Assembly (NCBI GenBank): GCA_041659545.1
Contig: JBAZYB010000001.1
Span: forward strand, 119,510-183,509
Direction of reading: 5' to 3'
From: Hyphomicrobium sp.
Lineage (GTDB): Bacteria > Pseudomonadota > Alphaproteobacteria > Rhizobiales > Hyphomicrobiaceae
DNA: 64,000 nucleotides
Both the position numbers and the translations under genes were made by a program. Positions 17,319-58,670 of this stretch are shown one piece after another (position 1 is the stretch's first letter; every line of letters begins with the position of its first letter). The notes under the pieces are model-generated. The model did no database searches. It was given only the letters and a program-made list of their open reading frames with translations, and was not told where the DNA came from.

Positions 17319-18398
17319 TTGTCACCCGGACGGTCATTCGTCTCCAAGATGCTCGTGAAGTCTAAAGTTGAAACGTTAAGGTCCGAAGGGAATAGCCTCG
17401 CGATCCTCGGTGAGGCGGAAGAGGCGGTGCTCGGCCGATTGGCTGCCGCCTTCGACCCCTTGGCGACCGACATTGTCTTCGTGTCTGGCTCGCGAATGGA
17501 GGGGCTCGGCAACTCGACATCGGATTTCGACCTCTACGTCGTGCAGTCCGAGAAATACACTGGGGACCCGTTCGTGACAGTTGTACTGGACGCTCAGTAC
17601 GCCGTTTACGAGATCTTTAGCCTGGCCCACGCTACGCGAGTGGCTACAACGCTTAACGCTATCGATCGGAACGACTATCGGCAAATAGCCTCCCTGTCGC
17701 TGTTCGAGCTTGAGTTCTACTATCGCGTCTTAATTGGCCGGGCTCTCACCAGCCACCACTCTTTCGAGCAACTACGGGATTCATTCCGGCGCTCAACAAT
17801 AGATGAATGTGTGGCGACATGGTGCGGGCTGCGCTCGGTGGTTTTGCTCGGTGAGGCTCGGCAAAAGCTTGCATTGTGTCGCGAGGCCGGAGCGTACGTA
17901 GCCGCTCAACAGGCGGCGGCGGCGGCACTCGACTCATTTCTGGCGGCACATGGGCAGTCTTATCCTGGATTCAAGTGGCGGTTCGAGAAATTGCTCAGGA
18001 TCGTTCCAAAGACTTCGCCAGATTTCAAACGCGCCTGGGACATCAAGTCATTGGGCCGTCGGGATGTTTCCCAATATCTCGATGCGGTCGCCGAGTTTTG
18101 TCGCGACATGGGCATGCAGGCGTTTGAGTCCTGGTCGTTGAACGACGTGATGTGCCGTCAGGCGAAGACAGCCCAGGCTATCGTGGTGAACGGTCAATGC
18201 TTCATCGTCGAGAACAAGACAACGTTGTTTGAGCTGGATGAAGCCAGCTCTAAGCTCTGGCAATGGATTGCGACTCCGACCCGGCGAGGCGATCTTCTCG
18301 ACCGCGCTGAGCAGGAGCAAGTCATGACTGCGCTCGAGGTGGACGAAGTCCTGTTCGACCTAGCAATGCACGGTCTTCTTCGGCAGGGAAGCGTATGA
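17319..18398 (+). CDS. Nucleotidyltransferase-domain protein with C-terminal PqqD-like (RRE-like) domain
   Basis: Pol-beta-type NTase motif FVSGSRMEGLGNSTSDFDLYVV. The C-terminal ~85 aa (AIVVNGQCFIVENKTTLFELDEASSKLWQWIATPTRRGDLLDRAEQEQVMTALEVDEVLFDLAMHGLL) follow the PqqD pattern. Start is TTG 17319 or ATG 17349. Confidence 0.6.
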   Translation: MSPGRSFVSKMLVKSKVETLRSEGNSLAILGEAEEAVLGRLAAAFDPLATDIVFVSGSRMEGLGNSTSDFDLYVVQSEKYTGDPFVTVVLDAQYAVYEIFSLAHATRVATTLNAIDRNDYRQIASLSLFELEFYYRVLIGRALTSHHSFEQLRDSFRRSTIDECVATWCGLRSVVLLGEARQKLALCREAGAYVAAQQAAAAALDSFLAAHGQSYPGFKWRFEKLLRIVPKTSPDFKRAWDIKSLGRRDVSQYLDAVAEFCRDMGMQAFESWSLNDVMCRQAKTAQAIVVNGQCFIVENKTTLFELDEASSKLWQWIATPTRRGDLLDRAEQEQVMTALEVDEVLFDLAMHGLLRQGSV

Positions 18399-19240
18399 CA
18401 GTCCCGGTGCGCCGTTTGCGAAGGATGCCTCGCGCTGCCAGCGCGCACTTCGTCGCCGATGCGCTCGCAACGAGGGTCGTCACCGCACACAGTGGGTACC
18501 ATCTCGATATCGAGGGTGGTCTGCAAGCGAGTCAATACGGCATGGTGTTTGTTGCAGCGCGACTAGCCCTATATGCCGCGCTGTACGTTCATCTGGCGAG
18601 ACAGGGGAAAGTGGCGATGCTGCCCGCGGACATGCGAGAGATAGGCAGCCAAGTGTTCGACCTATTAGCCGCGGACCCAGCAGAAGCGGACGTGCTAGCA
18701 ACGGCAATGGAGTTCGAGCGCGCGAATCCGTCAACCCCTGACGAGGTGCGCCAGTTCGTCGAAGCGTATCGCGCGTTCTTTGCGAACGTCCTGCAGCTCG
18801 ATCGCGGATTTGCGCATGCCACACTGTTCTCGGACAACACCTACGATCAGTACTTGAACTATGCCTCCGAGCTGACCAAGGCATTCGAATTGATTGGTAT
18901 TGCCGGCATCAATATTCCGGACATCCGCGCGCGCGCAGCGAAGCGGACCGCTGTGGCGGGTCGCCTCTCCGTAGGAGAGCCGAATGTGCCTTCCCTCTCG
19001 ATAGCTAAACCGATTGAGGAAACAGCGCCAGATGTCCGACAGGTCGTCGTGTCGCTTGACGAACGCGATGTCGAGCCACTGCGTGCGGCGCTGCGTGCGC
19101 TAACCGAGGCAATCACGGCCGAGCTTGCATCGACCGACGGCCGCGATGAGCGGCGCGAACTACTAGTTCGCCAAGGTGGGTTCGAGCGGACGCTGGAGCG
19201 GTTGGCTGAACAGGCACGGCCGACTTTATCAAAGCCATGA
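18395..19240 (+). CDS. Hypothetical helical protein coupled to the NTase gene
   Basis: ATGA overlap with both neighbours. 281 aa, Ala/Leu-rich. No motif recognised. Confidence 0.55.
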   Translation: MTVPVRRLRRMPRAASAHFVADALATRVVTAHSGYHLDIEGGLQASQYGMVFVAARLALYAALYVHLARQGKVAMLPADMREIGSQVFDLLAADPAEADVLATAMEFERANPSTPDEVRQFVEAYRAFFANVLQLDRGFAHATLFSDNTYDQYLNYASELTKAFELIGIAGINIPDIRARAAKRTAVAGRLSVGEPNVPSLSIAKPIEETAPDVRQVVVSLDERDVEPLRAALRALTEAITAELASTDGRDERRELLVRQGGFERTLERLAEQARPTLSKP

Positions 19241-20691
19241 TTGACGAGCCCGCGACGCAGGGGCCGCGATGGTCCTTCGGCGACCGGGTGAACCGCGTCG
19301 ATGAATCCATGATGATTGCCGGAGAGCTGCGCGAAGCTATTGATGGCGAGCGTTACGTCGTCTTCAATCCGGCCGATAGCTTGGAGGTCGGCACGGCGCC
19401 GCTCGGAACTCCGGCAGATGCAAGGACCGCTGTAGATGCTGCGGAGCGAGCTGGTGAAAAGTGGCGAGCCGTCAGTGTGAAAGAACGCGCGCGCCTACTT
19501 GAGACTGCTGTGGACGCTGTAGCAAGCGAATGTGACGGTCTGTCCCAATTGCTAACGGCTGAACAGGGGAAGCCTTTACACGAGGCACGCGCCGAAGTTC
19601 TTAGCTTTATACAGAGGATGCGAGTCTTCGCTAGGATCGCTCGTGGCAACGCTGACGGCCACGTGCCTTTGGTGTCTGCGGTCCCGAGCAGACGCTCCGC
19701 GACAGCATCGGATACCCGGCCCGTAGTCGGACTGGTCGCTTGGAACTATCCGGTGGGCCTCGCGGCTAAGAAGGTCGGTCCGAACCTCTTAGCTGGGCGC
19801 GCAGTTGTTCTCAAGCCGGCGCTAACGACACCACTGACGACCCTCCGTCTAGTGCAGCTCATGAACCACGCAGGTTTGCCTGAGGGTGTTCTCAACTGCG
19901 TCACGGGTAGGGGCGACGTGATCGGCAAGGCTCTCGTCGCCGACTCGCGGGTCGGGCGAATTCACCTGTCCGGAAGCGATCAGACCGGCACCTCAGTCGC
20001 ACGCAACGTTCGATCGAACTTTCCAGAAATGATTCTTGAGTTGGCAGGATCGGACCCGATGGTGGTCTGCGCGGATGCCGATATCGCGGCCGCCGCCACG
20101 GCCGCGACCGTCGGGAGATTCAAGAATGCTGGTCAAGCATGCATAGCGGTCAAACGGCTGTATGTCGACCGCGACATCTATCCTGAGTTCGTGGCACGGC
20201 TGCGCGATGAAGTCAGCAGGCTCGAACCCGGAGACGGCCGCATTGAGACAGTCCCGCCGCGCATACGGATGGGCCCTCTTCACACGGGTGCTCAGCGAGA
20301 ACGGGTTGAGGCGCAATTGTTCGACGCTCTTGAAAGTGGTGCGTCCTTAATTATCGGCGGCTCGCGGCCAGCCAAAGCGGCCCTCTGCTCTGGGTACTTT
20401 CTCGATCCGACGGTAGTCGCGCACGGACCAACTTCGAGCCGCCTCCTGACGGAGGAAGTGTTTGGTCCGGTATTGCCCGTTGTCAAGACCTCCGGTCTGG
20501 ATGATGCAATCACGAAAGCCAACCAAAGCACCTGGGACCTGAACGCATCTATCTGGACCCGCGATCAGACCGTCATTGACACCGCTCGGGCGAGTCTTAA
20601 ATGCCGTTCACTCTGGGTGAACCGCCTGCCATTTGGATTCGAGCCCGGCGATAAGGTTGAGCGCACCACGGCCCTGAGCCAATCCCATTGA
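19237..20691 (+). CDS. NAD(P)-dependent aldehyde dehydrogenase family protein
   Basis: VLKPALTTPLT, ILELAGSDP (general-base Glu context) and FKNAGQACIAVKRLYV (catalytic Cys context), at ALDH length. Confidence 0.85.
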   Translation: MIDEPATQGPRWSFGDRVNRVDESMMIAGELREAIDGERYVVFNPADSLEVGTAPLGTPADARTAVDAAERAGEKWRAVSVKERARLLETAVDAVASECDGLSQLLTAEQGKPLHEARAEVLSFIQRMRVFARIARGNADGHVPLVSAVPSRRSATASDTRPVVGLVAWNYPVGLAAKKVGPNLLAGRAVVLKPALTTPLTTLRLVQLMNHAGLPEGVLNCVTGRGDVIGKALVADSRVGRIHLSGSDQTGTSVARNVRSNFPEMILELAGSDPMVVCADADIAAAATAATVGRFKNAGQACIAVKRLYVDRDIYPEFVARLRDEVSRLEPGDGRIETVPPRIRMGPLHTGAQRERVEAQLFDALESGASLIIGGSRPAKAALCSGYFLDPTVVAHGPTSSRLLTEEVFGPVLPVVKTSGLDDAITKANQSTWDLNASIWTRDQTVIDTARASLKCRSLWVNRLPFGFEPGDKVERTTALSQSH

Positions 20692-21557
20692 GGCGCCGGT
20701 TGCTTGGGAGGAGTGGAATAGAGGTCTCGGCCATAGGGTTCGGCTGCATGGGCCTCTCGGAATTTCGCGGCCCTACGTCGGCAGAGGATGGGATCAAGGC
20801 CATCCACCGCGCCCTCGAATTGGGCATTGATCATTTCGACACCGCCGACATGTATGGCCACGGAGCCAATGAAGAACTCGTCGGAGCCGCGCTTGCCGGA
20901 AGGTGCGGTCAAGTTGTGATCGCGACCAAGTGCGGCATCGTCCGGAGCGCCGACGGTCATCGCCGGGATGGCCGCCCCCAGTACATCCGCGACGCCTGTC
21001 TGTGCAGTCTGAAGCGGCTGCGTCGCGAATACGTCGATCTGCTGTATTTGCACCGCGTGGATCCGTGCGTCCCAATCGAAGATAGCGTGGGTGAGATCGC
21101 CAGGCTGGTTGCTGAAGGCAAGGTCCGGGCCATTGGTCTGTCAAAGATCGATGGCGGACTGCTGCGCCGGGCGAGGACTGTCGCCCCGATTGCGACGGTG
21201 CAAATGTCTTACTCGGCTTCGGACCGGAGAGTGGAAGCGGAATTGCTGCAGGTCTGTCGGGAGGTCGGCAGCGCCCTTGTCGCATACTCGCCTCTCGGTG
21301 GTGGCAGCATGGCGAGGGCGGACGTGGCCGGAAAACTCGAGAGAGTGGCGCGCGACTACAATGCGACGCCAGCACAACTGGCGTTAGCCTGGCTGCTATC
21401 TCGGGGGCCCGACGTGGTGCCGATTCCCGGGATGCGCCTAGTCGCGCATGTAGAAGAGAACGTAGCCGCTTGTAGGAAGGTCGAGCGGGCAGAACTCGAG
21501 GGAGCCGTAGAAGCTGTGAGCCGGATTGTTACGAGTTCCGCGTGGGCGATTCATTGA
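20688..21557 (+). CDS. Aldo/keto reductase
   Basis: LGRSGIEVSAIGFGCMGLS and HFDTADMYGHGANEELVG, about 289 aa. TTG start overlaps the upstream TGA. Confidence 0.85.
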   Translation: MRRRLLGRSGIEVSAIGFGCMGLSEFRGPTSAEDGIKAIHRALELGIDHFDTADMYGHGANEELVGAALAGRCGQVVIATKCGIVRSADGHRRDGRPQYIRDACLCSLKRLRREYVDLLYLHRVDPCVPIEDSVGEIARLVAEGKVRAIGLSKIDGGLLRRARTVAPIATVQMSYSASDRRVEAELLQVCREVGSALVAYSPLGGGSMARADVAGKLERVARDYNATPAQLALAWLLSRGPDVVPIPGMRLVAHVEENVAACRKVERAELEGAVEAVSRIVTSSAWAIH

Positions 21558-22390
21558 AGCCGATCGCGGCTCTGAGCCGGGCCGACCGTTGCGTCTACGG
21601 ATCAAAGGCGACGGCGCTCGGCGAATTGACTCGGGCCGGATTCTCAGTGCCGGACGGCGTGGCGCTGCCAATGTCCGTGTTCGACGCCGTCGTCGACGGC
21701 GCCGGTCTCAGCGAACGAGTCCGCCTGTATGAGAGCGATGCCGCATCGGCTACGCCGCGGGAATTGATCGCGCTTGAAACGACCATGACCGGGCTGTTCG
21801 AGGGGGCGGCGCTTTCGGAACCAGATACCGTCGCCCTCGCTGCATTCGCTGAGGAAGGCACGACGTTTGCTGTCCGGAGTAGCGCAGCGAACGAGGATCT
21901 TGAAGGAGCGACCTTCGCAGGTCAGTATGTGTCATTTCTCAACGTCCCGCCCCACCTCCTTGTCTCACGGGTGTTGCAGTGCTTTGCGTCTCTCTTTGGT
22001 GCTCGCGCTGCGCTTTATCGCCGGAGAAAGCGCATCGAAGGAGTGGGGCGAATGGGCGTGATCGTGCAACAGATGGTGCAGGCGTCACATTCGGGTATCG
22101 TGTTTACGAAAGCGCCTCGGCACCCCGGAAAACTTCTGCTGGAATGCGGTTTAGGTTTGTGCGATGCAATTGTGTCTGGCCAGCTGGCGCCAAGCCGTTA
22201 CTACATTGACCGCTCCACGCTGGAGATTGACACCGCGCAGGAAACGTTTTCGCTGAGCGACAGCGACATCCGCCGAATTACACAGAAGGCACTTGTCATC
22301 GAAGCGCTGATGGGACACCCGCAGGACATCGAGTACAGCATCTTGAACGACGACTTGCTTGTGTTGCAGGCACGCCCGATTACGTCATGA
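21542..22390 (+). CDS. PEP synthase/PPDK N-terminal nucleotide-binding (PPDK_N) domain protein, stand-alone
   Basis: YGSKATALGELTRAGFSVPDG, FAVRSSAANEDLEGATFAGQYVSFLNV, MGVIVQQMV, GLGLCDAIVSGQ and PQDIEYSILNDDLLVLQARPIT match the PPDK_N pattern. It ends without swivel or PEP/pyruvate domains. Confidence 0.8.
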   Translation: MGDSLKPIAALSRADRCVYGSKATALGELTRAGFSVPDGVALPMSVFDAVVDGAGLSERVRLYESDAASATPRELIALETTMTGLFEGAALSEPDTVALAAFAEEGTTFAVRSSAANEDLEGATFAGQYVSFLNVPPHLLVSRVLQCFASLFGARAALYRRRKRIEGVGRMGVIVQQMVQASHSGIVFTKAPRHPGKLLLECGLGLCDAIVSGQLAPSRYYIDRSTLEIDTAQETFSLSDSDIRRITQKALVIEALMGHPQDIEYSILNDDLLVLQARPITS

Positions 22391-23241
22391 CTCGCCAGAC
22401 GGAAACCGGTGCGGCAGATTGGAACGACCGAGCGGTGCTCTACGGGTACGGCCTGTTCGAGACCATGCGTGTCTATCGCGGCGTGCCGTTCGTCTTCGAT
22501 GCGCATCTCGATCGCTTGGAGGCGTCGTTATCGTCGCTTGCCCTGAACAGGGTTCCGAATCGTGTGGCCTATCGTCGCGACGTGTTAGCGCTTGCCGCCT
22601 CGCTCGATGAGGGCGCAATCCGCCTGATGGTCACTGCTGGCAACCCCGATATGGATGTCGCGCCGACGCACCACGTCGCGGTCAGGGCTCTGCCCTATTC
22701 GCCCCGGTTGTACGCGACCGGAGCGACGGTCTGCATGGCGCGTGAACCTCGCAACGAACTCTCGATGCTGTGCCGCCACAAGACGCTGAACCAGCTTCAG
22801 AACATCATCGAGTGGCAGGCCGCCGTGAAGGCCGGCAGCCTGGATTGTCTGTTTCTGAACACGACGGGGCACCTGGCAGAAGGCTCGCGCAGCAACGTGT
22901 TCATAGTAAAACAGGGACGACTAATCACTCCCTCGCTGTCGTGTGGCATTCTTCCAGGCATTGCGCGCCTGATGGTGTTGGACCTGGCGCGGCAAGCCGG
23001 TCTATTCGTGACCGAGGCGCCTGTGACGACAGCGGACTTGTTCTCGAGTGATGAGTGCTTCTTGACGAACTCACTTGCCGAAGTGCTCCCCGTGCGTCAG
23101 ATTGGCACCGCTCGGCCGCAGCACTGTCCCGGCCCGATCACGAGCCTGCTGGCACAGCGATATCGCCAATGTACCGACGGCGTCACGCCCTACGCATTGC
23201 CGTCTCTTCTTCTATCCGAATGTGGAGATAGCCGCACGTAA
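22387..23241 (+). CDS. Class IV (fold type IV) PLP enzyme, aminodeoxychorismate-lyase/branched-chain aminotransferase-like
   Basis: YGYGLFETMRVYRGVPFVFDAHLDRL, the Lys context CRHKTLNQLQN, SNVFIVKQGRLITP and ECFLTNSLAEVLPV. ATGA overlap upstream. Confidence 0.75.
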   Translation: MTRQTETGAADWNDRAVLYGYGLFETMRVYRGVPFVFDAHLDRLEASLSSLALNRVPNRVAYRRDVLALAASLDEGAIRLMVTAGNPDMDVAPTHHVAVRALPYSPRLYATGATVCMAREPRNELSMLCRHKTLNQLQNIIEWQAAVKAGSLDCLFLNTTGHLAEGSRSNVFIVKQGRLITPSLSCGILPGIARLMVLDLARQAGLFVTEAPVTTADLFSSDECFLTNSLAEVLPVRQIGTARPQHCPGPITSLLAQRYRQCTDGVTPYALPSLLLSECGDSRT

Positions 23242-23248
23242 CGCTCGC

Positions 23249-24646
23249 GTGGGAAATCGCTGCGTGCTCGTGCACAATGCGATCCGGTACTCGGGTTCTC
23301 GACTTGATGGCCTGTCCGGGCAGTTGGCAGAAACCCTGGCGGCGTCGGGAGTGTCGGTCCACAGTCGCGTTGCGGTTTGCCTGGGAAACTCGCCGGCCTT
23401 TGTGATCGCGGTGCTGGCCTTGGACAAGCTGGGTTGCGGCGTCTTCTACCTGAGCCCGCGATCCACTCAGGCAGAGGGCCAGGATTTCATCACGAGAGCA
23501 AAGCCAGCGGCTTTGCTGCTGCCGGGCGGGGACGCTTCGACGCACTTCGCCTGCCCTGATGCAACTGAGTTCAGGCCCGGGCAGCCGTTCTCAATATCTA
23601 TCGTCAGGCTCTCAGGTGTCGATGCGAAGGGCTCGGTCACCGCGCACATGACTTCGGGGGTCTCAGGTCGCTCGAAGATCTCCCTGAGACCACCTGCGGC
23701 GATCGAAGATGAGCTCGAGACGTTTGCGGCCCGGCTGGATCTAGGGCATGAGGACGCGACTGTTTGCCCCTGCAGCCTGGCGCACATGTACGGGTTTGTG
23801 AACGGCTTGCTCCTACCGTTGTGGTCTGGACGTCCGCTTGTGCTCGTCGACAACTGGTTGTTGCCAAACGAGCTGATCCGCCAGATTCGCCTGTTCCGGC
23901 CCCGCGTGCTGATCGGCGTGCCGGTCATGTTCGACGCCTTGTCACGCGCCTACGGAGCTGCCGCCGATGACCTGGCATCGCTGCGGATCTGTTTTTCGGC
24001 CGGGGCGCCGCTCACGCGAGCTACGGTGGACGCATTCGGCAGGACGTTCGGCTTGCCCATTCATCAGCAGTATGGTTCGACCGAGACCGGTGTCATCGCC
24101 GTCAACCTACTCGAGCAGCCTGGGCGAGATCCGCTCTCGGTGGGAAGGCCCCTGGCTGGCCGCCATGTGACGGTCTGCACGGACGACGGCGAGGCGTTGC
24201 CTGGAGTGCGTGGAGAGATCGTCGTTCGAGGCCGAGCCGTGGCGTCGGGATACTTGGACGACCAGGACGATTTGTCCCGGTTGCGGGAGGGCGCGTTCTA
24301 CACCGGCGATCTCGGCGCCTTCGATGCAGACTCAGGTCTTCATGTCGTCGGGAGGGCCACCGCGACCATCAACGTCGCCGGCCTGAAGGTCGATCCGGTT
24401 GAAGTGGAGGCGGTGTTGAGCGCCTGCGATGCGGTCGCCGAATGCGCGGTGGTGCCGGGTGTCGATCGATCCGGCAACGAAGTGGTCCAGGCGTTTGTGG
24501 TTCAGAGGCGGGAAATCTCTGCCCGAGAGATTCAGCTGTTCTGCCGGCGGCGTCTGTCGGCGCACAAGATCCCGAGGCTGGTGCGATTCGTTGACGCGTT
24601 ACCCCGAACGGCGAGCGGCAAGGTGCTCGTCAGGCAGCTCATGTGA
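23249..24646 (+). CDS. AMP-dependent (ANL superfamily) ligase 1
   Basis: Divergent A3-like TSGVSGRSK, QQYGSTETG, YTGDLG and the C-terminal LPRTASGKVLVRQL. Start set to GTG 23249, just after the upstream stop. Confidence 0.8.
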   Translation: MGNRCVLVHNAIRYSGSRLDGLSGQLAETLAASGVSVHSRVAVCLGNSPAFVIAVLALDKLGCGVFYLSPRSTQAEGQDFITRAKPAALLLPGGDASTHFACPDATEFRPGQPFSISIVRLSGVDAKGSVTAHMTSGVSGRSKISLRPPAAIEDELETFAARLDLGHEDATVCPCSLAHMYGFVNGLLLPLWSGRPLVLVDNWLLPNELIRQIRLFRPRVLIGVPVMFDALSRAYGAAADDLASLRICFSAGAPLTRATVDAFGRTFGLPIHQQYGSTETGVIAVNLLEQPGRDPLSVGRPLAGRHVTVCTDDGEALPGVRGEIVVRGRAVASGYLDDQDDLSRLREGAFYTGDLGAFDADSGLHVVGRATATINVAGLKVDPVEVEAVLSACDAVAECAVVPGVDRSGNEVVQAFVVQRREISAREIQLFCRRRLSAHKIPRLVRFVDALPRTASGKVLVRQLM

Positions 24647-24655
24647 GGAGCGATC

Positions 24656-26310: not shown

Positions 26311-26326
26311 GGCCTAGAACAGTGGT

Positions 26327-32015: not shown

Positions 32016-32025
32016 AAGCGCAGTC

Positions 32026-32730: not shown

Positions 32731-32790
32731 TTGGATAGAACCGTTTCATCGTGTCGCGTTCTCGATCGGACCGCGTGCCGCCGGGAACAG

Positions 32791-52437: not shown

Positions 52438-52471
52438 GGCCTCCGGCCGTTTCCCAGCGAAGTGAGTCGCC

Positions 52472-53323
52472 ATGCCAGTGCCACGCGTTGAACGTTTTGA
52501 CAAGAGCTCGAGGGACGGCACCTTACTGAAGTGCTGCCGAATCGGCGTCGGTAGTCCTCTCGTCGTTGCTAACCCGATCGGTATCCACCCTGATGCTTGG
52601 ATGCCTGTCGCCGCAGAACTCGACGGCCAGTTTTGCCTTCTGCTTTGGGAGGGACGCGGGTTGGGCAGTTCCGCCTATCCTGTCAACCCTGCTGCCATGG
52701 AAGTGACGGACCATGCCGCGGACTTGCGGGCCGTCGCATCCACTTGCGGGAGTTCTCCGTTCGGGTTGATCGCATTTTGCTCTGCCGCGCTGGTCGCGTG
52801 TGAGGCACTTCAGGACAGAGCGTTTGCTCCCCATCGCGTGATGTTCATCAGTGCCCCGTTGGCTCAAAGGCCTCAGGACCAGGTAATTCTCCGGTTCTTG
52901 AAGAGGGTGGCGAGCGAAAAGAACGGATGGCGCGGAATGGCGGAGATCTGCCAGGCGTTCGTGCCCGATGAATTCAGAAGCGGAGTTGCGGCGATGTTCG
53001 AACAAAAGCGCGGTGCCGATGCGTTCATGAGGACCATCGAGAGCTATGTTCGCTACCGGCCTAGTCCTGCGTTCTCCACCGCGCCGCTATGGCTGGCTCT
53101 CGCTGAGTCCGACGATGCAGCAACGAGAACTGGAAACGAGATCTTTCTGAAGGCGAGGCGTGACCCTCGCGACCGCATGGTGACATTGCCTGGAAAGCGT
53201 TATGCGTCGCTGGTCAGACCGGCAGAATTCGCAAGAATGCTAGCAGAATGGTGGCAAGAGGGCGTCACCGTGCCGCCTGACGTCTTACAGTCGGTCCAGA
53301 AGATCGGCGGTCACTTCGGGTGA
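52472..53323 (+). CDS. Alpha/beta-hydrolase-fold protein with Cys at the nucleophile elbow
   Basis: VVANPIGIHPDAWMPVAAELDGQFCLLLWEGRG and FGLIAFCSAALVA. It is a paralog of the C-terminal domain of 42021..44021. Confidence 0.65.
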   Translation: MPVPRVERFDKSSRDGTLLKCCRIGVGSPLVVANPIGIHPDAWMPVAAELDGQFCLLLWEGRGLGSSAYPVNPAAMEVTDHAADLRAVASTCGSSPFGLIAFCSAALVACEALQDRAFAPHRVMFISAPLAQRPQDQVILRFLKRVASEKNGWRGMAEICQAFVPDEFRSGVAAMFEQKRGADAFMRTIESYVRYRPSPAFSTAPLWLALAESDDAATRTGNEIFLKARRDPRDRMVTLPGKRYASLVRPAEFARMLAEWWQEGVTVPPDVLQSVQKIGGHFG

Positions 53324-53902
53324 GGTTCTGGCGGCGTCCAGCGTCGTCCAGTTGTCCCTTGCCGACCATAGATCCAGTTGAGCTGTTATCTTGCGTTGAT
53401 GGCTCAAGAAGCTACCGTAGCTACAAGTCGCGTCCATTCCGCATTCATAGGGAACGACTTGGCCTCGCTGCTTGCGAGACCAAGCTAGATCAGGATCTAG
53501 CCTCAGATAGAACACCCGATCCGGCCGACGCAGTCCAGCCACGACATTCTCGGTCCATGTGGCGTCGAGGCCATAGGCAATCTCGCTGGCAGCATGCTTC
53601 ATCCAATAGCCGTCCATAACGAACACGTGCGACCTGTGTGACTCTGCACGAGTCACGGCCAAGGAGATGGTCCACATCAAGAACAGGAAACGCGGCACCT
53701 GCCGCATCTCGATCAAGCCTTCGCGAATTTCTCCGCTCTGGGCCCTCAAGAACGTGGCAGTCGGATAATGGCCCGGGTTGTTGAGGATATCCCAGCGGTC
53801 CAATACCGTGGCGTGTGTGCCGCGCTGACGCAGCTCCGCAGTGAGTGCGGCGGCCGCAGTCGATTTGCCGGCACCATCACTTCCGACAATTGCAATCAGC
53901 AT
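53285..53902 (-). CDS. P-loop kinase of the thymidylate-kinase fold family
   Basis: MLIAIVGSDGAGKSTAAAAL (Walker A) and VFVMDGYWMKHAASEIAYG (the DRY-like region, diverged). It is the only minus-strand gene inside the cluster and overlaps the convergent hydrolase gene by 39 nt. The start is uncertain (up to 53965). Confidence 0.6.
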   Translation of the reverse strand: MLIAIVGSDGAGKSTAAAALTAELRQRGTHATVLDRWDILNNPGHYPTATFLRAQSGEIREGLIEMRQVPRFLFLMWTISLAVTRAESHRSHVFVMDGYWMKHAASEIAYGLDATWTENVVAGLRRPDRVFYLRLDPDLAWSRKQRGQVVPYECGMDATCSYGSFLSHQRKITAQLDLWSARDNWTTLDAARTSPEVTADLLDRL

Positions 53903-54046
53903 AGTCGAGTCGCGCAACACCGCCGGCTCGTGAGTGCAGCCGGCCATTGAAGTGTATAGCGTCAACCCTACGACAGTCGACCTGACAGGAAGTACGTCAT
54001 TCTATGTCGTTCGTGACCGCACCTGGCCAGCTGTGACTCTCGCTTA

Positions 54047-55012
54047 ATGATGCTATCGGCGTCTGTGTCTGCAATCAGGGTCTCACACATCGCGAAGAGG
54101 TTCGGGAAGCGGGATGCCCTGCGCGACATCACGTTTGATGTGGCGCCAGGCGAAGTGTTCGGACTCGTGGGTCCGAATGGGGCCGGGAAGTCTACGTTGA
54201 TCCGGATTCTGTCGACGCTGGTGCGGCCCTGCGCCGGCACGGCATTCGTCGGCCCGCATAGCGTCACTGATGCCCCGAACGCCGTAAGACGACTGCTTGG
54301 CGTAGTGCCGCAGGCGCATACCAGCGATCCTCACATGAGCGTCGAGGAAAACCTTCGTCTGTTCGCAAAGCTGTACGAGGTTCCGGCCGCGAAGCGACGG
54401 CAACGGATTCCGGAGGCGATGGAGGCGGTCGGCGTTCTAGAACATCGCTCAACTCCAGTGAAGAATCTATCGGGCGGGCTGAGAAGGCGGGTCGAGATTG
54501 CAAGGGCCTTGGTGCATGAACCAGCCGTGTTGATCCTGGACGAACCAACCTCCAGTCTTGACCCGGTGTCGAGGACCAACATCTGGTCCGTTATTAAGAC
54601 CCTTGTTAGGGATCGAGGCATGGCGTTAGTTCTGGCAACTCACTATATGGAAGAAGCCGAGAGCCTGTGCGATCGAGTTGCAATCCTCAATACTGGGCGA
54701 ATCGTTGCGCTCGACTCGCCGGGGCGGATGAAACAGGCGTTGAGGAAAAACGATGTGATCGACCTCGTGTTTGAGGAGCCGGGTCAACAACGAGATTGGG
54801 CGGCGGCACTGTCAACATTGCCCGGACTCGTGAGCATAGCCCAGGCGCCGAGCGGCGTTACGATTGAGAGCACGAATGGCTTCCGGACGCTGCAGGCTCT
54901 GTCCTGCCACGTCGAGGATCAACAGGCTCGAATCGCGTCATGCTCAATGCGTCCTATCACTCTGAATGATGTATTTGCCCACTATACGTCGAACCTCGGA
55001 GCGAAAGCCTGA
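54047..55012 (+). CDS. ABC transporter ATP-binding protein (ABC-2/DrrA-like)
   Basis: GPNGAGKST, LSGGLRRRVEIA and VLILDEPTSSLD. Confidence 0.9.
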   Translation: MMLSASVSAIRVSHIAKRFGKRDALRDITFDVAPGEVFGLVGPNGAGKSTLIRILSTLVRPCAGTAFVGPHSVTDAPNAVRRLLGVVPQAHTSDPHMSVEENLRLFAKLYEVPAAKRRQRIPEAMEAVGVLEHRSTPVKNLSGGLRRRVEIARALVHEPAVLILDEPTSSLDPVSRTNIWSVIKTLVRDRGMALVLATHYMEEAESLCDRVAILNTGRIVALDSPGRMKQALRKNDVIDLVFEEPGQQRDWAAALSTLPGLVSIAQAPSGVTIESTNGFRTLQALSCHVEDQQARIASCSMRPITLNDVFAHYTSNLGAKA

Positions 55013-55036
55013 TCGGAGAGCGCTTCTAACGCAGTA

Positions 55037-56122
55037 ATGTGGAAGACCCTTGCGATTGTCGAGCGGGAACTGTGGCGCCTTGCCCGTCGTCCCACACTGA
55101 TCGTCATGGCTCTCCTTCTGCCAGCAATCCAGTTGCTGGTTCTTGGTTACGCGGTTGGCGGTGATATCCCTGAGTTGCGGGTTGCGGTGGTTGGCGATGA
55201 TCCAGTCATACAACTTCTCGTGCCCGATTCGGCCGAGGGCAGATCCGACGCTGAGGCGCTTCGGGGGATCCGATTTCAGTCGATAGATGCAGCACGGCAA
55301 GCCCTCTTGGCCGGTGAGGTGCATGGGGTCCTGGCGATACCGCGCGATCTTCGGGCCGAAGCGGTCAGAATCGAAGTCGATAGCGCGGACAAGTTTCTCG
55401 CAGACGCGATGGTCGACCGTGTCACGTCTGCCCTGCGCCGCTACGATCTCGCGATCGCTCCCGAGTTGCTGGCACAGACGACAAACCTGAATGTGACGGA
55501 GGTGTTCGGTCAAGTTCCGTATATCCAGTACTTGCTCGCAGGGGTTGTGTCTTTAGCGGTTTTCATGATGTCGACGGTAGGGGGCGGCATTACTTTCGTG
55601 GACGACAAGGTCAGGGGCGTCCACGAGGGGTATCTCGTAACTCCAATCACGACCGTCCAGTTAGTCGGCGGCTTTGGCATCGCGGGTGTGATCAAAGCGG
55701 CGTTAGCCGGTATCTGTCTCTTGGTCATCGGCAGCGTGCTGGCTGATCTGCCCAGCATAATGGCGCTCGGCCAGTTCCTGAGACTGAGCATCGTTGTCGC
55801 GGCGACGGCTTGTGCTCTGGTCGGATTGACGTTCGTGATGATCGTGCGCGCGCAAGACCTGTTCTGGCCGAGGGCTATGTTTGCCGTGGCGAACACCGCG
55901 CTGTACTTTCCTAGCGGAGCGCTCTATCCAACCGACGCGTTCCCAGAATGGATGCGGGTGCTGTCGTATGTAAACCCCTTCTACTATTCGGTGCACGCTT
56001 TGCGCGCTGTCATGCTCAGGAGCGCAAACCTGTGGCAAGTACAGGCCGACCTGGGGGCGTTGCTCCTATTCGCTGCCGTGGCCTTCGCCATTGTCGTCTT
56101 CGCGTTTAAGCGCACCCTATGA
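55037..56122 (+). CDS. ABC-2 type transporter permease
   Basis: 361 aa. One N-terminal TM, an extracytoplasmic loop, then about 5 C-terminal TM helices. It directly follows the ATPase gene. Confidence 0.8.
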   Translation: MWKTLAIVERELWRLARRPTLIVMALLLPAIQLLVLGYAVGGDIPELRVAVVGDDPVIQLLVPDSAEGRSDAEALRGIRFQSIDAARQALLAGEVHGVLAIPRDLRAEAVRIEVDSADKFLADAMVDRVTSALRRYDLAIAPELLAQTTNLNVTEVFGQVPYIQYLLAGVVSLAVFMMSTVGGGITFVDDKVRGVHEGYLVTPITTVQLVGGFGIAGVIKAALAGICLLVIGSVLADLPSIMALGQFLRLSIVVAATACALVGLTFVMIVRAQDLFWPRAMFAVANTALYFPSGALYPTDAFPEWMRVLSYVNPFYYSVHALRAVMLRSANLWQVQADLGALLLFAAVAFAIVVFAFKRTL

Positions 56123-56152
56123 CCACTTCGTGAGCTGTGGTCCCTTGACCTC

Positions 56153-57004
56153 ATGCCGATCATGAACCCTGAGGAATTTGCGCTCGCAAGTCGGCGCGCC
56201 CATCAAGCGGACTCAGTGGTCGATGTATATGGGGTAACGGTGGGTGGGCTGAGACCCGTGGTGTGCGCCGGCCCCTGCTCTGTGGAGACACCGGAGCAGA
56301 TATTGGCATGTGCTGAAGCAGTCCGGAAATCCGGGGCACATCTGCTTCGAGCCGGAGCGTACAAACCGCGCACGTCACCCTATTCCTTCCAGGGCCTCGG
56401 CGAGAGAGGTCTCAAGCTTCTCGCCGAGGTGCGGGAGGAAACGGGCCTCGGGATCGTGACCGAGGCGGTTGATACCGACACATTCGACCTCGTCGAGGAA
56501 TATGCTGACTGCGTGCAAATCGGCGCACGAAACATGCAGAATTTCTCGCTCCTGCGCCGTGCAGGTAGATCGGTTCGCCCAATTCTTCTAAAGCGCGGGC
56601 TCTGCGCAACATTGCAAGAGTTCTTGTTAGCCGCCGAGTATGTCTTGGCTGGCGGCAATCCGCGGGTGATCCTCTGTGAACGCGGCGTGCGAACATTCGC
56701 GGATCATTCGCGTACGACACTCGACCTCAGCATCGTGCCGGCCGTGAAGAGGCTGAGTCACCTTCCAATCATCGTGGATCCGAGTCACGCTACCGGCGTT
56801 CGGGACGCGGTGCCTTCGATGTCCCTAGCGGCGATAGCTGCGGGCGCGCATGGTTTGTTGATAGAGATGCATGTGCAGCCGAATCAGGCGCTCACTGACG
56901 GCCCGCAGGCGATTTATCCGTCGCAGCTGGAACGAATCGTATCTGATACCGCTTCGATTGCAGCCATTCTTGCCCAATCCAAAGTGCCCCAACCGCTTAT
57001 TTAA
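56153..57004 (+). CDS. 3-deoxy-7-phosphoheptulonate (DAHP) synthase, type I-beta (KDO8PS-like) family
   Basis: CAGPCSVE, LRAGAYKPRTSPYSFQGLG, VQIGARNMQN, LLKRG and VDPSHATG. Confidence 0.8.
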   Translation: MPIMNPEEFALASRRAHQADSVVDVYGVTVGGLRPVVCAGPCSVETPEQILACAEAVRKSGAHLLRAGAYKPRTSPYSFQGLGERGLKLLAEVREETGLGIVTEAVDTDTFDLVEEYADCVQIGARNMQNFSLLRRAGRSVRPILLKRGLCATLQEFLLAAEYVLAGGNPRVILCERGVRTFADHSRTTLDLSIVPAVKRLSHLPIIVDPSHATGVRDAVPSMSLAAIAAGAHGLLIEMHVQPNQALTDGPQAIYPSQLERIVSDTASIAAILAQSKVPQPLI

Positions 57005-57151
57005 CTGGCTGGTGTTCGGCAGGACAACAGCTGCGAGTCAGTATGTCCAGTGCACGTTCTGCCGTACTTACTGACAGCGCGAGCGTCCAGGCTACGGGAG
57101 GGTATAGTGTCGCATCGCTTAAGCGCGTGAGTTCTTCAACCGGAGGGTGTG

Positions 57152-57361
57152 ATGTCCAAGGTTAGCAAAGAGTTGGTCGTTGGGGTATCGCGGAAGACAG
57201 GAGTCAGCGAAGCTGACGTTGAGAAAGTGCTGAATTCGCTTGGACTGAACAAGGTGCTGTCCAATGTTCAGGCGTCTGCCGGAGCAACGAAGATGTCCTC
57301 TTTGAAGGTTGGAGACCTCAAGCTGGGAGTGCGGTTGGGCCGGTCTTCGGTGTCGGTCTAG
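57152..57361 (+). CDS. Small protein (69 aa), function unknown; the only short ORF that fits in the cluster's intergenic space
   Basis: GGAGGG sits 4 nt upstream of ATG 57152. The translation is MSKVSKELVVGVSRKTGVSEADVEKVLNSLGLNKVLSNVQASAGATKMSSLKVGDLKLGVRLGRSSVSV. It ends 28 nt before the next gene. Confidence 0.5.
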   Translation: MSKVSKELVVGVSRKTGVSEADVEKVLNSLGLNKVLSNVQASAGATKMSSLKVGDLKLGVRLGRSSVSV

Positions 57362-57389
57362 GCAGGTGCACTCGTGAGAGTGCGTCTGC

Positions 57390-58670
57390 GTGAAGCAATG
57401 TGGCTTGTCCGAGTATCCAGTGACTGAGAGCGATCTGGCGATTCCCGTAGACATCACTCCCGCGATCGAGTGTTTGCCGCTACGGGAAGCGCTGTTGTCT
57501 TACAGCGAGGCTCGCACAATTCAATCCGACCCGGTGCGGTTGAGCGATTTGATTGCAACGCTCAACGAGCGGGCCCTTTACGACGTACCTGCCCTGTCCT
57601 CTTTCGCGGCAACACCGAGAACAACGAAGGAAGGCCTGCGTGATCATCAGGCGCTCTGGCTAAACAGGCTGGCTCTTGCGGATGAACTGTGGCTCAAGTA
57701 CACGACGGGTACCACGGGACCTCCTTTGCCCATTCCACAGACTGGCCTATTTCAGTTTGACCAGCTGTTTCTGGCGCCTTTGCGCGCTGCGAGACACCGC
57801 GCTCCGCACCTGAAGCCCAGCGCCACTATTCTGGCTCTCACCGACAATCCGGACTGCGAGACCGTGATTTGGCCCAACCCGTGGGGTGGGATGGTGTGCC
57901 AGTACTATTTTAGTGACGAACTAGCAGCCGCAACCGACCTGTCCCGCACGTTAGCGGAACTGGAGCCGGATCTAATAACGGCTAAACCGAGTCTCACTCA
58001 AAGGCTGGCGACCCTGTCCTTAACCGGCGAGCTGTCTGTGCCCTGTCCTATCTTGGTCAGCGGCGCCGACATCTCCGCTGTCGCAAAAACGTCTTACGAG
58101 CAGGCGCTGGGTGTCCACGTAATCGAAGCGTTCGGACTGACGGAGACCGGACTCATCGCGTCAGATTGCAGCTGCGGAGGCGGCTTGGCCATAGACAGGG
58201 ATGTCGCAATCGAGGTCTTGGACGGGGATGAGCGACCGGTCGCCATAGGCGAGTTTGGCGGTCTGATCTTGACGTCACTACGAAACAGCGTCTTGCCGAT
58301 AGTCAGGTATGCCACCGGTGACACAGTGTCCATTGGCGAAGCGTCGCCTCAGTGCAACCGGGGGCAGCACATCGTGGCGATTGGAGGCCGATTATTGCGG
58401 CCGTTCCGTGGGCGCGATGGACGACTGTTGCCGGCGGCCAGATTCCATTCGCTGTTTGCGAACTTCGAGATTACTGAGTTCCAAATGGTTCAAACGCATA
58501 TCGGTCAATTGGACGTTGTAGTGCAGGGGCGGGACGGCGTTACGCTCGATGCGCGGGCGATTGAGGGCTGGATCGTCGCCCGGTCTTCGTGTGATGTCAG
58601 AGCTCGAGTGCGGCTCGATACGGTAGATACATCCGGAAAATTTCAACGGTACGTGAGCATGATCGATTAA
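57390..58670 (+). CDS. Phenylacetate-CoA ligase / coenzyme F390 synthetase-like adenylate-forming enzyme
   Basis: LKYTTGTTGPPLPIP (P-loop of the PaaK-like subgroup), EAFGLTETG, RYATGD, and a C-terminal SGKFQRYV. The start codon is uncertain. Confidence 0.65.
   Translation: MKQCGLSEYPVTESDLAIPVDITPAIECLPLREALLSYSEARTIQSDPVRLSDLIATLNERALYDVPALSSFAATPRTTKEGLRDHQALWLNRLALADELWLKYTTGTTGPPLPIPQTGLFQFDQLFLAPLRAARHRAPHLKPSATILALTDNPDCETVIWPNPWGGMVCQYYFSDELAAATDLSRTLAELEPDLITAKPSLTQRLATLSLTGELSVPCPILVSGADISAVAKTSYEQALGVHVIEAFGLTETGLIASDCSCGGGLAIDRDVAIEVLDGDERPVAIGEFGGLILTSLRNSVLPIVRYATGDTVSIGEASPQCNRGQHIVAIGGRLLRPFRGRDGRLLPAARFHSLFANFEITEFQMVQTHIGQLDVVVQGRDGVTLDARAIEGWIVARSSCDVRARVRLDTVDTSGKFQRYVSMID

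Follow-up and report, generated by a model that had tools for sequence, protein, structure and literature searches.

Background

Two-component dikinases, made up of an ATP-grasp subunit and a swivel/acceptor subunit and homologous to rifampin phosphotransferase, phosphorylate phenols (PpsAB, HpeHI, CreHI) (PMC12167813), and a related synthase phosphorylates the nitrogen of aniline en route to 4-aminobenzoate (PMC7500099). For the B12 radical S-adenosylmethionine (SAM) enzymes CysS and TokK, the substrates are linked to pantetheine (PMC12846815). In Pseudomonas aeruginosa, the PA1211-PA1222 cluster, in which PA1213 is listed as the TauD enzyme, responds to quorum sensing, RpoH and host cues, and as of July 2026 no metabolite had been identified for it (PMC13351317). 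Relatives of these systems lie side by side in a stretch of 64,000 nucleotides filed under Hyphomicrobium sp. (assembly GCA_041659545.1, contig JBAZYB010000001.1, positions 119,510 to 183,509), hereafter called the window. We read the genes at approximately 14.9-58.7 kb of the window as one co-transcribed mosaic natural-product cluster that would build a small molecule on free carrier proteins without condensation (C) domains of nonribosomal peptide synthetases (NRPS) or ketosynthase (KS) domains of polyketide synthases (PKS), and we give this reading a probability of roughly 0.45.

An earlier note on the same DNA had inferred a carrier-dependent pathway without NRPS or PKS, and the free carriers, the stand-alone ligases and the lack of a C or KS domain in the window bear this out. 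The note had also called the enzyme set unlike any pathway. Indeed no described pathway fits the whole, and we found none in the literature on these enzyme types in combination; however, the set is not unitary, and consists of two cassettes known separately elsewhere, together with genes specific to the window.

Results

Organisation of the cluster

All long plus-strand open reading frames (ORFs) between 14.9 and 60.4 kb were scanned against Pfam and NCBIfam. With the most plausible start codons of the ORF listing, 33 successive plus-strand genes span 14914-53323 at distances of -23 to +65 nt, with frequent overlaps of 1-23 nt between neighbours; if orientation were random, the probability of 33 genes sharing one orientation would be ~2e-10. 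The nine start/stop overlaps reported earlier were all found in the sequence where they had been placed (9/9), and the proposed ceiling of ~70 nt on intergenic gaps agrees with the largest gap measured, 65 nt. The all-plus run described for 17319-53323 is correct in strand but not in extent, as its true start lies one gene upstream, at an ADOP-family permease (14914-17313). Similarly, the genes of the continuation to 58670 are present, but the run is broken by a minus-strand dTMP-kinase-like gene (53285-53965); because this gene intervenes, the part with the ABC-2 exporter, 3-deoxy-D-arabino-heptulosonate 7-phosphate (DAHP) synthase and PaaK-like ligase is taken to be a separate unit.

Judged by homology, the cluster is a mosaic, in which we define the following three parts: (i) cassette A, with predicted PabA/PabB, a class IV pyridoxal-phosphate (PLP) enzyme, DAHP synthase, an ANL ligase, a carrier and a split dikinase; (ii) cassette B, with a predicted HMGL synthase-carrier fusion, an ANL ligase, AsnB, PhyH and TauD oxygenases, methyltransferases and hydrolases; (iii) genes specific to the window. 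Nearly all enzyme classes of the earlier list were recovered by Pfam/NCBIfam or by motif. The B12-binding and Radical_SAM Pfam matches are present in 4/4 of the B12-type radical SAM enzymes; PabB and DAHP synthase, listed with PabA, exceed curated cutoffs; PhyH, TauD, the two ANL ligases and the PaaK-like ligase, AsnB, HMGL, aldehyde dehydrogenase (ALDH), aldo/keto reductase (AKR) and the racemase were all found by Pfam/NCBIfam, as were four alpha/beta-hydrolase-fold proteins and two free carriers plus a fused one, which is at the C-terminus of the HMGL protein. Some assignments stood in part. Four of the five methyltransferase-fold proteins are clear, the fifth (47337-48161) being weak (Methyltransf_24, E=0.0017); the proposed fusion of a nucleotidyltransferase (NTase) with a PqqD-like domain has a clear NTase motif (GS...DxD) but a weak PqqD part (E=0.24); the class IV PLP enzyme is an Aminotran_4 protein, whose identity as aminodeoxychorismate (ADC) lyase is favoured by gene context only; and the split module for utilisation of phosphoenolpyruvate (PEP), in which PPDK_N and swivel genes are indeed separate, is reread here as a three-part small-molecule dikinase that includes a 348-aa ORF.

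For the cluster proteins compared, the best non-self identity is 53-65% (5.8-billion-protein collection or loci fetched for comparison, which are denoted below by L and a number), and neither the public sequences compared nor the fetched loci contain a close relative of the entire cluster. Cassette A flanks cassette B: its NTase, ALDH and the block from PPDK_N to PabB lie on the left, and its Tmk-like gene and DAHP synthase on the right. Cassette B occupies two blocks (32.7-37.9 kb and 44.0-50.4 kb) plus 52.5-53.3 kb, and methyltransferase 4 (MT4), acyl carrier protein 2 (ACP2), rS2, TauD, abH666 and rS4 are interleaved within it. The nesting of A around B, together with the interleaved window-specific genes, suggests one integrated pathway rather than chance adjacency.

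Two rival explanations are serious. The first is a supercluster, that is, two or three independent pathways in one transcription unit making separate compounds. It agrees with the distribution of the cassettes: at least 16 other loci have A but not B, L007, L008, L009 and P. aeruginosa have B but not A, and no locus besides this window was found with both. Conversely, parts of cassette A on both sides of cassette B, the split of cassette B into blocks with window-specific genes interleaved, junction genes that overlap or are 7-65 nt apart, and extra transacylase-like hydrolases that have no role in either cassette alone all argue against separate pathways, and we consider the supercluster unlikely.

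The second rival holds that the window encodes building blocks and tailoring for a cystobactamid/albicidin-like oligo-aminobenzoate peptide, assembled in trans by an NRPS elsewhere in the genome. The PabAB, ADC-lyase-like enzyme, DAHP synthase, CysS homologues, TauD, methyltransferases and SyrC-like-looking hydrolases recall the cystobactamid set, and cassette A stands beside NRPS genes in L002 and L006. However, the absence of NRPS condensation and PKS ketosynthase, noted earlier, holds for the ORFs of the window, which show no signature of either: HHxxxDG and DTACSS motifs are missing from ORFs of >=150 aa in all six frames of the window, and no Condensation Pfam domain matched any scanned ORF of the 64 kb, a span that takes in 17 kb before and 5 kb after the cluster. 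In addition, there is no AMDH-type SGGKD motif within the cluster, where the sole PP-loop is the SGGIDS of a canonical AsnB; Pfam scans of the cluster and a repeat search found no BoxB-like ring hydroxylase (CysC) and no pentapeptide-repeat run; and the TauD protein is nearer to FrbJ and 7n7v than to the asparagine oxygenase AsnO. An NRPS in trans therefore appears distinctly unlikely, and one integrated cluster remains the reading followed below.

A proposed split dikinase and the 348-aa protein

The PPDK_N protein, the swivel protein and the conserved 348-aa protein most plausibly represent a three-component small-molecule dikinase, the acceptor subunit of which would be a new fold. The ATP-grasp component (21542-22390; here and below, genes are on the plus strand unless stated otherwise) matches Pfam PPDK_N with E=5.7e-45 and aligns with the N-terminal 230-280 residues of the PEP synthase, rifampin phosphotransferase (RPH) and PigC models; its homologues in L002, L003, L005, L006 and L025 are 35-42% identical. 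The PEP-utiliser swivel (24948-25274; Pfam PEP-utilizers, E=2e-18) is a separate 108-aa protein, EYGGVICHICTVAAELGIP, that keeps the His, the presumed phosphorylation site, after a Gly-rich loop (GGVICH motif). The swivel-His motif of dikinases is described in PMC12167813. The 348-aa protein (25264-26310), with ~60 homologues, is proposed as the acceptor component on the strength of gene order. In every locus with upstream DNA available, the swivel gene is directly upstream of the gene for the 348-aa protein. In the window these two genes share 11 nt, as do the called genes of L002, L003, L005, L006 and L021, and in the other loci the overlap is 8-35 nt; the carrier gene PCP1 likewise overlaps the swivel gene by 11 nt. 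The order carrier-swivel-348 is shared by the window, L002, L004, L005, L006, L011, L021 and L026. This conserved coupling of the 348-aa/swivel pair to a carrier gene suggests that the acceptor of the dikinase is carrier-bound.

The 348-aa protein has no Pfam or NCBIfam match and no match in the plasmid search. Its AlphaFold2 model, built on 37 homologues, is of high confidence (pLDDT 93, pTM 0.90), and shows no fold match in the PDB (best Foldseek E=0.28, TM 0.13), where no profile match was found either. Invariant residues of the family are Y162, E164, H171, E176 and H178, and many Arg and Lys residues are conserved.

Cassette A and its relatives elsewhere

Homology shows DAHP synthase, PabA/PabB and the class IV PLP enzyme to be a predicted source of p-aminobenzoate; this complete chorismate-to-aminobenzoate supply in the window supports the aminobenzoate precursor inferred earlier. 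The PabA-type glutamine amidotransferase (27136-27750; GATase, E=1.5e-54) has homologues of 59-64% identity in L003, L005, L006 and L013, and is followed by PabB, component I of ADC synthase (27747-29237; TIGR00553, 365.9 bits, cutoff 328.4; PIKGT motif). For the class IV PLP enzyme (22387-23241; Pfam Aminotran_4), a probable ADC lyase, the models of ADC lyase and of branched-chain aminotransferase score alike and both below cutoff; a gene of this class directly follows PabA-PabB in L006 and L025. The DAHP synthase (56153-57004; NF006421, 409 bits, cutoff 335), the entry enzyme of the shikimate pathway, has homologues of 53-60% identity in the cassette A loci L003, L005 and L025. The cassette also contains ANL ligase 1 (ANL1, 23249-24646; AMP-binding, AMP-binding_C), carrier protein 1 (PCP1, 24656-24958; PP-binding, E=1.4e-7; VDSL motif), an ALDH (19237-20691; Pfam Aldedh, E=1.5e-113), which accompanies cassette A in L002 and L005, and an AKR (20688-21557; Pfam Aldo_ket_red, E=4e-64), which is also found in L017 and L021. 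The SAM methyltransferase 1 (MT1, 26327-27112; Methyltransf_11/25) has homologues of 44-53% identity near the 348-aa gene in L002, L003, L005 and L011, directly after it in most of them.

Cassette A neighbourhoods were read around homologues of the 348-aa protein in 16 distinct loci; in all, the cassette is found in at least 17 loci, spread over many phyla. An ANL ligase is within 10 kb of the 348-aa gene in most of these loci, PabB, mostly with PabA, is present in eight, and a separate PPDK_N gene is found in the Acidobacteriota, Aminicenantes and Paenibacillus versions and in L025. L025 adds a PqqD protein followed by an NTase-like ORF, and L026 adds an NTP_transf_5 protein. Next to the cassette are NRPS genes in L002 and L006 and a PKS/NRPS in L026. 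Its hosts are Blastocatellia, other Acidobacteriota, Aminicenantes, Nitrospirae, Polyangiales, several metagenome-assembled genomes (MAGs) of Bacillota, gut Ruminococcus and Lachnoclostridium, the cultured Paenibacillus aceti L14 and an Altiarchaeales MAG.

The locus of P. aceti L14 (L021; NZ_KZ987724.1, 3584403-3605341) contains genes for a HemN-like radical SAM enzyme, a carrier protein, the swivel and 348-aa proteins, PPDK_N, a carbamoyltransferase, AKR, an ANL ligase, a class II aminoacyl-tRNA synthetase-like protein, DUF2461, PAP2, PabB and PabA, and a GT4 transferase adjoins. As a cultured carrier of cassette A, this organism is tractable for the genetics of the cassette. A DUF362-ferredoxin protein follows the 348-aa gene, with non-B12 radical SAM enzymes nearby, in L003 (Aminicenantes-type), L025 and L026, and cassette A is accompanied by HemN-like radical SAM genes in L002, L005 and L021; both features are missing from the window. 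This variation suggests that cassette A may exist in oxygen-sensitive and oxygen-tolerant forms.

The wide distribution also bears on another explanation, according to which cassette A makes an aminobenzoate-derived cofactor or a cell-envelope modification and the window cluster is an elaborated version of it. The swivel/348-aa pair is very widespread (Acidobacteriota, Nitrospirae, Polyangiales, Bacillota including gut genera, Paenibacillus, and the Altiarchaeales MAG), and some loci have GT4, PAP2, GT2, nucleotidyltransferase and nucleotide-kinase-like neighbours, as expected from this explanation. Its distribution is, however, patchy and not universal, linkage to NRPS, PKS, phosphopantetheinyl transferase, thioesterase and exporter genes is frequent, and the carrier-protein logic is typical of specialised metabolism, making a cofactor or envelope role improbable.

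Cassette B and the PA1211-PA1222 cluster

As far as gene content and homology can tell, cassette B matches the orphan PA1211-PA1222 cluster of P. aeruginosa. Its central gene (44000-45751) encodes an HMGL-type Claisen condensing domain (HMGL-like, E=4.9e-59), a middle domain and a C-terminal carrier. The protein scores 230-250 bits against 2-isopropylmalate synthase (IPMS) and homocitrate synthase models, and its middle domain has a cupin-like His motif (weak Cupin_2 match, E=0.12). The family has more than 429 members, of ~460 aa without the carrier or ~570 aa with it. In the search of the plasmid database, residues 7-459 proved 44% identical to a '2-isopropylmalate synthase' of P. aeruginosa (NZ_CP131792.1). 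At 228-241 kb of this record (L035), the synthase sits downstream of an NRPS gene, between a PhyH-family dioxygenase on one side and a class I methyltransferase and an AMP-binding gene on the other. The AMP-binding fragment is 32% identical to its window counterpart, the PhyH-family neighbour 35% to the PhyH protein of the window, and the methyltransferase adjoining the PA1217 homologue 28% to methyltransferase 3 (MT3). The record is filed as an 847-kb 'plasmid' and carries what look like chromosomal core genes. We take L035 to be the PA1211-PA1222 cluster, from the PAO1 gene numbering, in which PA1214 is an AsnB, and from the cluster description in PMC13351317. In L035 a Mu-like prophage, with Mor, GemA, Gam and transposase genes, truncates the AMP-binding gene to 113 aa. 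A further HMGL plus middle-domain protein, 37% identical, is encoded on plasmids of the Bacillus cereus group (pST7-1 of B. thuringiensis, L036, and 43 others); on pST7-1 it adjoins two MoeB/ThiF-like genes and a hydrolase, a context unlike cassette B.

The remaining genes of cassette B are best compared to those of L007, a contig of an Acidobacteriota project that has eleven genes in common with the window (38-65% identity), among them abH283, HMGL with its fused ACP domain (38% identical to ACP2), ANL2, the esterase, MT2, AsnB, PhyH, the Methyltransf_24-like protein, rS3 and MT3. In L007 the cassette adjoins genes like those of type II fatty acid synthase/PKS systems, not aminobenzoate genes. 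The left block of the window begins with an Esterase-family hydrolase (32731-33804; Pfam Esterase, E=7e-18; 46% homologue in L007), followed by methyltransferase 2 (MT2, 33801-34568; weak Pfam methyltransferase matches; PDB 3iv6, E=5.7e-50; 50% in L007) and the AsnB-type glutamine-dependent amidotransferase (34579-36330; Asn_synthase, GATase_7; TIGR01536, E=4.6e-56). AsnB has the N-terminal MCGIAG motif, with the catalytic Cys kept, and SGGIDS; its homologues are in L007, L008 and L009. MT3 (36347-37147; Methyltransf_11/25; 59% in L007, 28% in L008) and the PhyH-family Fe/2-oxoglutarate (Fe/2OG) dioxygenase (37137-37892; PhyH, E=1.6e-31; 54% in L007) complete this block. The TauD-family Fe/2OG dioxygenase (40984-42024; TauD, E=1.3e-27; 39-47% in L008 and L009) matches PDB entry 7n7v (3.6e-41), FrbJ (3.5e-29) and AsnO (3.6e-6). 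Directly after the HMGL gene come ANL ligase 2 (ANL2, 45748-47337), an A-domain-like protein (AMP-binding; TIGR01733, E=1e-53, below cutoff) that is 56% identical to its homologue in L007 and 38% to those in L008 and L009, and the Methyltransf_24-like protein (47337-48161; 54-56% in L007). The last gene (52472-53323) encodes abH283, a small alpha/beta hydrolase with a Cys elbow (AFCSA), a weak Abhydrolase_1 match and a 42% homologue beside HMGL in L007. At L007 18677-20889 the rS3 homologue is split over several frames (~65% pieces), which probably reflects assembly frameshifts and not a pseudogene.

The core of HMGL, AsnB, ANL, PhyH, TauD, methyltransferase and small hydrolase recurs in Rugamonas aquatica (L008), and in Streptomyces (L009/L010), where a stand-alone C domain accompanies it along with NUDIX and a SARP regulator.

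B12 radical SAM enzymes, ACP2 and Cys hydrolases

Three of the four B12 radical SAM enzymes are full-length homologues of CysS and probable methylases of its type: rS1 (29234-31198; CysS/KedN5-type; PDB 9n1b, CysS, E=1.6e-139 at full length; TokK, 2e-59), rS2 (39035-40951; KedN5-family, E=2.3e-86) and rS4 (50473-52437; KedN5-family, E=4.4e-86). They are 37%, 43% and 45% identical to CysS, respectively, rS2 and rS4 being 55% identical to each other, and, of the residues to which the CysS structure paper (PMC12846815) assigns contact with substrate or cofactor, the equivalents of W75, the Trp on the cobalt side, of W206 and of S273, the Ser in contact with the amine, are conserved. The fourth enzyme, rS3 (48227-50413; Radical_SAM, B12-binding), is not of the CysS type: its Cys triad is CX4CX2C (CYWDRCTFC), compared to CX3CX2C in the other three, it has a 170-aa N-terminal extension without a Pfam match, and it weakly matches the rSAM_ocin_1 and PhpK models. 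Its homologue of ~65% identity belongs to cassette B of L007 in Acidobacteriota.

Carrier protein 2 (ACP2, 38749-39015; PP-binding at cutoff; GLLDSLG motif) is a paralogue of the C-terminal carrier domain of HMGL (43% identity, E=2e-20). The gene pair ACP2 + rS2 is kept in the metagenome contig L027 (54% and 58% identity), the sole informative relative from the metagenome scan with rS2; this recurrence hints that rS2 works on an ACP2-bound substrate. MT4 (37925-38701; Methyltransf_11/25/12/31, E=2.6e-18) has no homologue in the cassette A or B loci.

Among the hydrolases, abH1 (31206-32015; Abhydrolase_1/6) has a Ser nucleophile (AWSLA), and its gene is followed by that of an Asp/Glu-family amino acid racemase (31993-32730; TIGR00035, 172.5 bits, cutoff 93.1). 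The 666-aa protein abH666 (42021-44021) combines a Rossmann-like N-terminal domain with an alpha/beta hydrolase that has a Cys-Asp-His triad. A word-indexed search finds abH666 itself alone, and a full HMMER search finds a small family of ~650-aa proteins, at most 41% identical, in which the triad residues C438, D585 and H613 do not vary. The C-terminal half of abH666 has a canonical alpha/beta-hydrolase fold (Foldseek E ~1e-12), and two relatives have NAD_binding_4, which matches the Rossmann-like N-terminal half. CysB resembles SyrC/CmaE, Cys-type hydrolases that shuttle aminoacyl groups between carriers (PMC7966384). By analogy, abH666 and abH283 are candidate transacylases.

A peptide scaffold, RiPP-like (that is, related to ribosomally synthesised and post-translationally modified peptides) or of the carrier-peptide kind, on which the B12 radical SAM enzymes would methylate a ribosomal peptide recruited by the PqqD-like domain, was the alternative of the earlier note and is the least probable explanation, with almost no support: it can draw on the weak PqqD-like C-terminus of the first protein, genuine PqqD and NTP_transf_5 genes in L025 and L026, a match of rS3 to a RiPP C-methyltransferase model (E=5e-24, far below cutoff) and a 70-aa ORF at 57149-57361, but there is no conserved precursor gene, the 70-aa ORF having no homologue in related loci, and no leader peptidase, YcaO or LanB/M, while AsnB keeps its catalytic Cys and fits asparagine synthetases far better than lasso cyclases, and three of the radical SAM enzymes are of the CysS/TokK type, which acts on pantetheine-linked small molecules.

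Proposed pathway

Under the reading of one integrated cluster, the product is best read as a heavily methylated aminobenzoate conjugate. ANL1 would load aminobenzoate onto PCP1, and the three-part dikinase would phosphorylate the carrier-bound aromatic unit, or a precursor of it, using ATP, the precedents being the phenol and aniline dikinases. On ACP2 or the carrier fused to HMGL, ANL2 together with the HMGL domain would assemble a short (alkyl)malate-like acid; this cassette B acid may then be hydroxylated by the two Fe/2OG oxygenases, amidated by AsnB and methylated by the methyltransferases. The CysS-type enzymes could methylate pantetheine-tethered intermediates repeatedly, giving branched alkyl or alkoxy groups. 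Acyl groups would be moved between carriers, or onto the aryl amine, by abH666/abH283 in the manner of the SyrC/CmaE/CysB shuttles. Finally, the Ser hydrolase would free the product, and the ABC-2 and/or ADOP transporters would export it.

Several points weigh against this reading. Each chemical step is deduced from sequence, the acceptor role of the 348-aa protein from gene order only, and the SyrC/CmaE likeness of the Cys hydrolases is an analogy. Of the CysS residues that contact the substrate, W188 and W271, the two that hold its carbonyl, are not conserved in the window homologues. No arene hydroxylase is recognisable, which leaves a CysS-like methoxy-aminobenzoate substrate unexplained and alkoxy groups on the aminobenzoate ring unproven; the substrate of the methylases may instead be the other building block. 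ACP2 is a carrier of the cassette B type, which weakens the analogy to cystobactamid. The NRPS linkage of cassette A in L002 and L006 makes an NRPS outside the 64-kb window possible, and the cassettes, which exist independently elsewhere, could make separate products.

Flanking genes and genomic setting

The ADOP-family protein that opens the run (14914-17313; TIGR03434, 672 bits, cutoff 622; Pfam MacB_PCD, FtsX) is a duplicated MacB/FtsX permease and a likely exporter. Its gene is 5 nt from the next one, and in L006, too, cassette A is preceded by an ADOP-like permease. The following gene (17319-18398) encodes a Pol-beta-type nucleotidyltransferase (GS...SDFDLYVV motif) with the weak PqqD-like C-terminus. 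Its Pfam matches to Polbeta/MTPAP (E=0.04-0.08) and PqqD are weak, and no PDB sequence match was found; the NTase part matches the ORF that follows the PqqD gene in L025 (E=9e-5), and the pairwise match to the L025 PqqD spans just 14 residues. The next gene (18395-19240), with an ATGA overlap at each end, encodes a 281-aa protein with no Pfam, NCBIfam or PDB sequence match.

On the right, the minus-strand dTMP-kinase-like P-loop protein (53285-53965; Thymidylate_kin, E=1.5e-8) is 28% identical to the L025 protein, and Thymidylate_kin-like genes recur with cassette A in L025 and L026. Because of their counterparts in L025/L026, this gene and the one at 17319 probably belong to an extended cassette A. 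An ABC-2 exporter (54047-56122) consists of an ATPase (54047-55012; ABC_tran) and a permease (55037-56122; ABC2_membrane), and similar ABC-2-type pairs flank cassette A in L004 and L026. After DAHP synthase come the 70-aa ORF (57149-57361), which is of uncertain reality, being taken from the mechanical listing, with no Pfam match and no homologue in any fetched locus, and a PaaK-like adenylate-forming ligase (57390-58670; AMP-binding, E=4.8e-7) with weak matches to the DVU_1553, PaaK, FlxY and BagE/FevW families. A 119-aa Arg/Pro/Ser-rich ORF at 58694-59053 has no family match; it is probably not a real gene, so that the cluster likely ends at ~58670.

Upstream of the cluster, an IS66-family transposase gene (10437-11633) lies inside a patch with a GC content of 0.70, compared to an even 0.586-0.622 along the cluster. 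An apparent truncated alanine racemase (C-terminal domain only) adjoins it, and a phage-integrase fragment is near the window start (features at 12033-12647 and 831-1412). Taken together, they suggest that the DNA immediately before the cluster is mobile or rearranged. Outside the cluster, a 261-aa minus-strand ORF (3418-4203) has a PP-loop-like SGGRD motif and no Pfam match. An Rfam scan of the window gave no match, and promoter and terminator scans, with site numbers not above those of shuffled sequence, were uninformative. It should be noted that the ADOP permease, CarboxypepD_reg proteins and the nearest homologues (Blastocatellia, Acidobacteriota) are Acidobacteriota-like signals; the Hyphomicrobium sp. 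label or the binning of the source MAG may be wrong, and the DNA Acidobacteriota-like instead.

Discussion

On its predicted gene content we rate the cluster as a carrier-protein-based specialised-metabolite cluster; coming from an uncultured genome, it is of value as a lead and not as a result. The conserved module of carrier, His-swivel, new-fold 348-aa protein and ATP-grasp occurs in soil, groundwater and gut bacteria, and may stand for a new kind of phosphotransfer to aromatic units bound to a carrier. More tentatively, and with considerable doubt, we propose that carrier, swivel, 348-aa protein and PPDK_N constitute a new class of three-component carrier-directed dikinase, which would phosphorylate a tethered aminobenzoyl/aryl unit (on N or O) for NRPS-free coupling in at least six bacterial phyla and one archaeal MAG. 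In the window it would be combined with three methylases of the CysS type and a PA1217-type cassette, and the outcome would be a new family of highly branched, methylated arylamides; solving it would at the same time reveal the chemistry behind the PA1211-PA1222 product. Cassette B ties an environmental cluster to PA1211-PA1222, a cluster under the control of quorum sensing, heat shock and host cues; a compound from any member of the cassette B family would make the question of the PA1211-PA1222 product testable. Three iterative CysS-type methylases without an NRPS would widen the known substrate range of a class valued for tert-butyl-like groups.

Comparison with known systems

Compared to two-component dikinases, RPH and PigC/RedH, the window shares a separate ATP-grasp protein and a His-swivel with GG...H, and the aromatic substrates of characterised split dikinases (phenols, aniline) resemble its proposed aryl acceptor. 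It differs in having three polypeptides, not two; unlike RPH-type enzymes, its presumed acceptor component has no match to the rifampin-binding domain or to any PDB fold, and unlike catabolic split dikinases, the acceptor gene is coupled to a carrier-protein gene and found in biosynthetic clusters.

The likeness to PA1211-PA1222 consists in a PA1217-type synthase with the extra middle domain and in adjacent PhyH, methyltransferase, AMP-binding and small alpha/beta hydrolase genes; AsnB and TauD are beside the synthase in the window, Rugamonas and Streptomyces, whereas the Pseudomonas record is cut by the prophage. PA1211-PA1222 has a valine-activating A-PCP didomain (PA1221) where the window has the stand-alone ANL2 and the HMGL-fused carrier, and it lacks the B12 radical SAM enzymes and the aminobenzoate genes, both of which are present in the window.

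The cystobactamid/albicidin analogy drawn earlier, to which coralmycin can be added, stands for the aminobenzoate supply (a PabAB-type ADC synthase, an ADC-lyase-like enzyme and DAHP synthase), for the three CysS homologues, for a TauD-family oxygenase with several SAM methyltransferases, and for alpha/beta-hydrolase candidates for acyl shuttling between carriers, like CysB. It does not extend to the multimodular NRPS, condensation domain, AMDH, ring hydroxylase and N-oxygenase, which the window lacks, and the HMGL/AsnB cassette and the split dikinase are extra in the window and not described there.

TokK/ThnK and KedN5 belong to the same B12 radical SAM subfamily as rS1, rS2 and rS4 (KedN5-family model, E=1e-86 to 1e-93; 290-313 bits, compared to a cutoff of 700), and the iterative methylation of pantetheine-linked substrates that is a trait of the TokK/ThnK type may apply to them as well. 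Beta-lactam synthetases lack the glutaminase Cys. A carbapenem reading, which the TokK-type methylases, the AsnB-like enzyme and the 2OG oxygenases could have suggested, was rejected: the AsnB of the window keeps Cys2, and no enoyl-CoA hydratase/crotonase (CarB/ThnE) was found in the window. With the beta-lactone cassette the window shares gene types (an IPMS homologue, methyltransferase, ANL ligase and hydrolase); a beta-lactone warhead (cystargolide/belactosin) was rejected, as CysF (PDB 8RA0; PMC11427300) is absent from the 60 best PDB matches of ANL2, and MT2 matches only 3iv6, a structural-genomics protein. Despite FrbC- and FrbJ-like genes, a phosphonate (FR-900098-like) reading was rejected, since no scanned ORF has a PEP mutase Pfam match. 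A RiPP reading of the proteusin, bottromycin or lasso type was rejected because there is no precursor gene and AsnB matches TIGR01536 (4.6e-56) over the lasso cyclase model (1.1e-12). The cluster thus fails the tests that define cystobactamid-type NRPS, RiPP, beta-lactone, carbapenem and phosphonate clusters.

Closthioamide, a product of NRPS-independent thiotemplated assembly, resembles the proposed pathway in its free carriers, stand-alone adenylating ligases and chorismate-derived aromatic acid, and in amides formed without C domains. In contrast to that system, the Pfam matches of the window include no papain-like or transglutaminase-like homologues, the candidates here being Cys-type alpha/beta hydrolases. 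Among the parts of the cluster, the 348-aa acceptor subunit may be a truly new component family; individual other parts have clear relatives in CysS/TokK, PA1211-PA1222 and the split aromatic dikinases.

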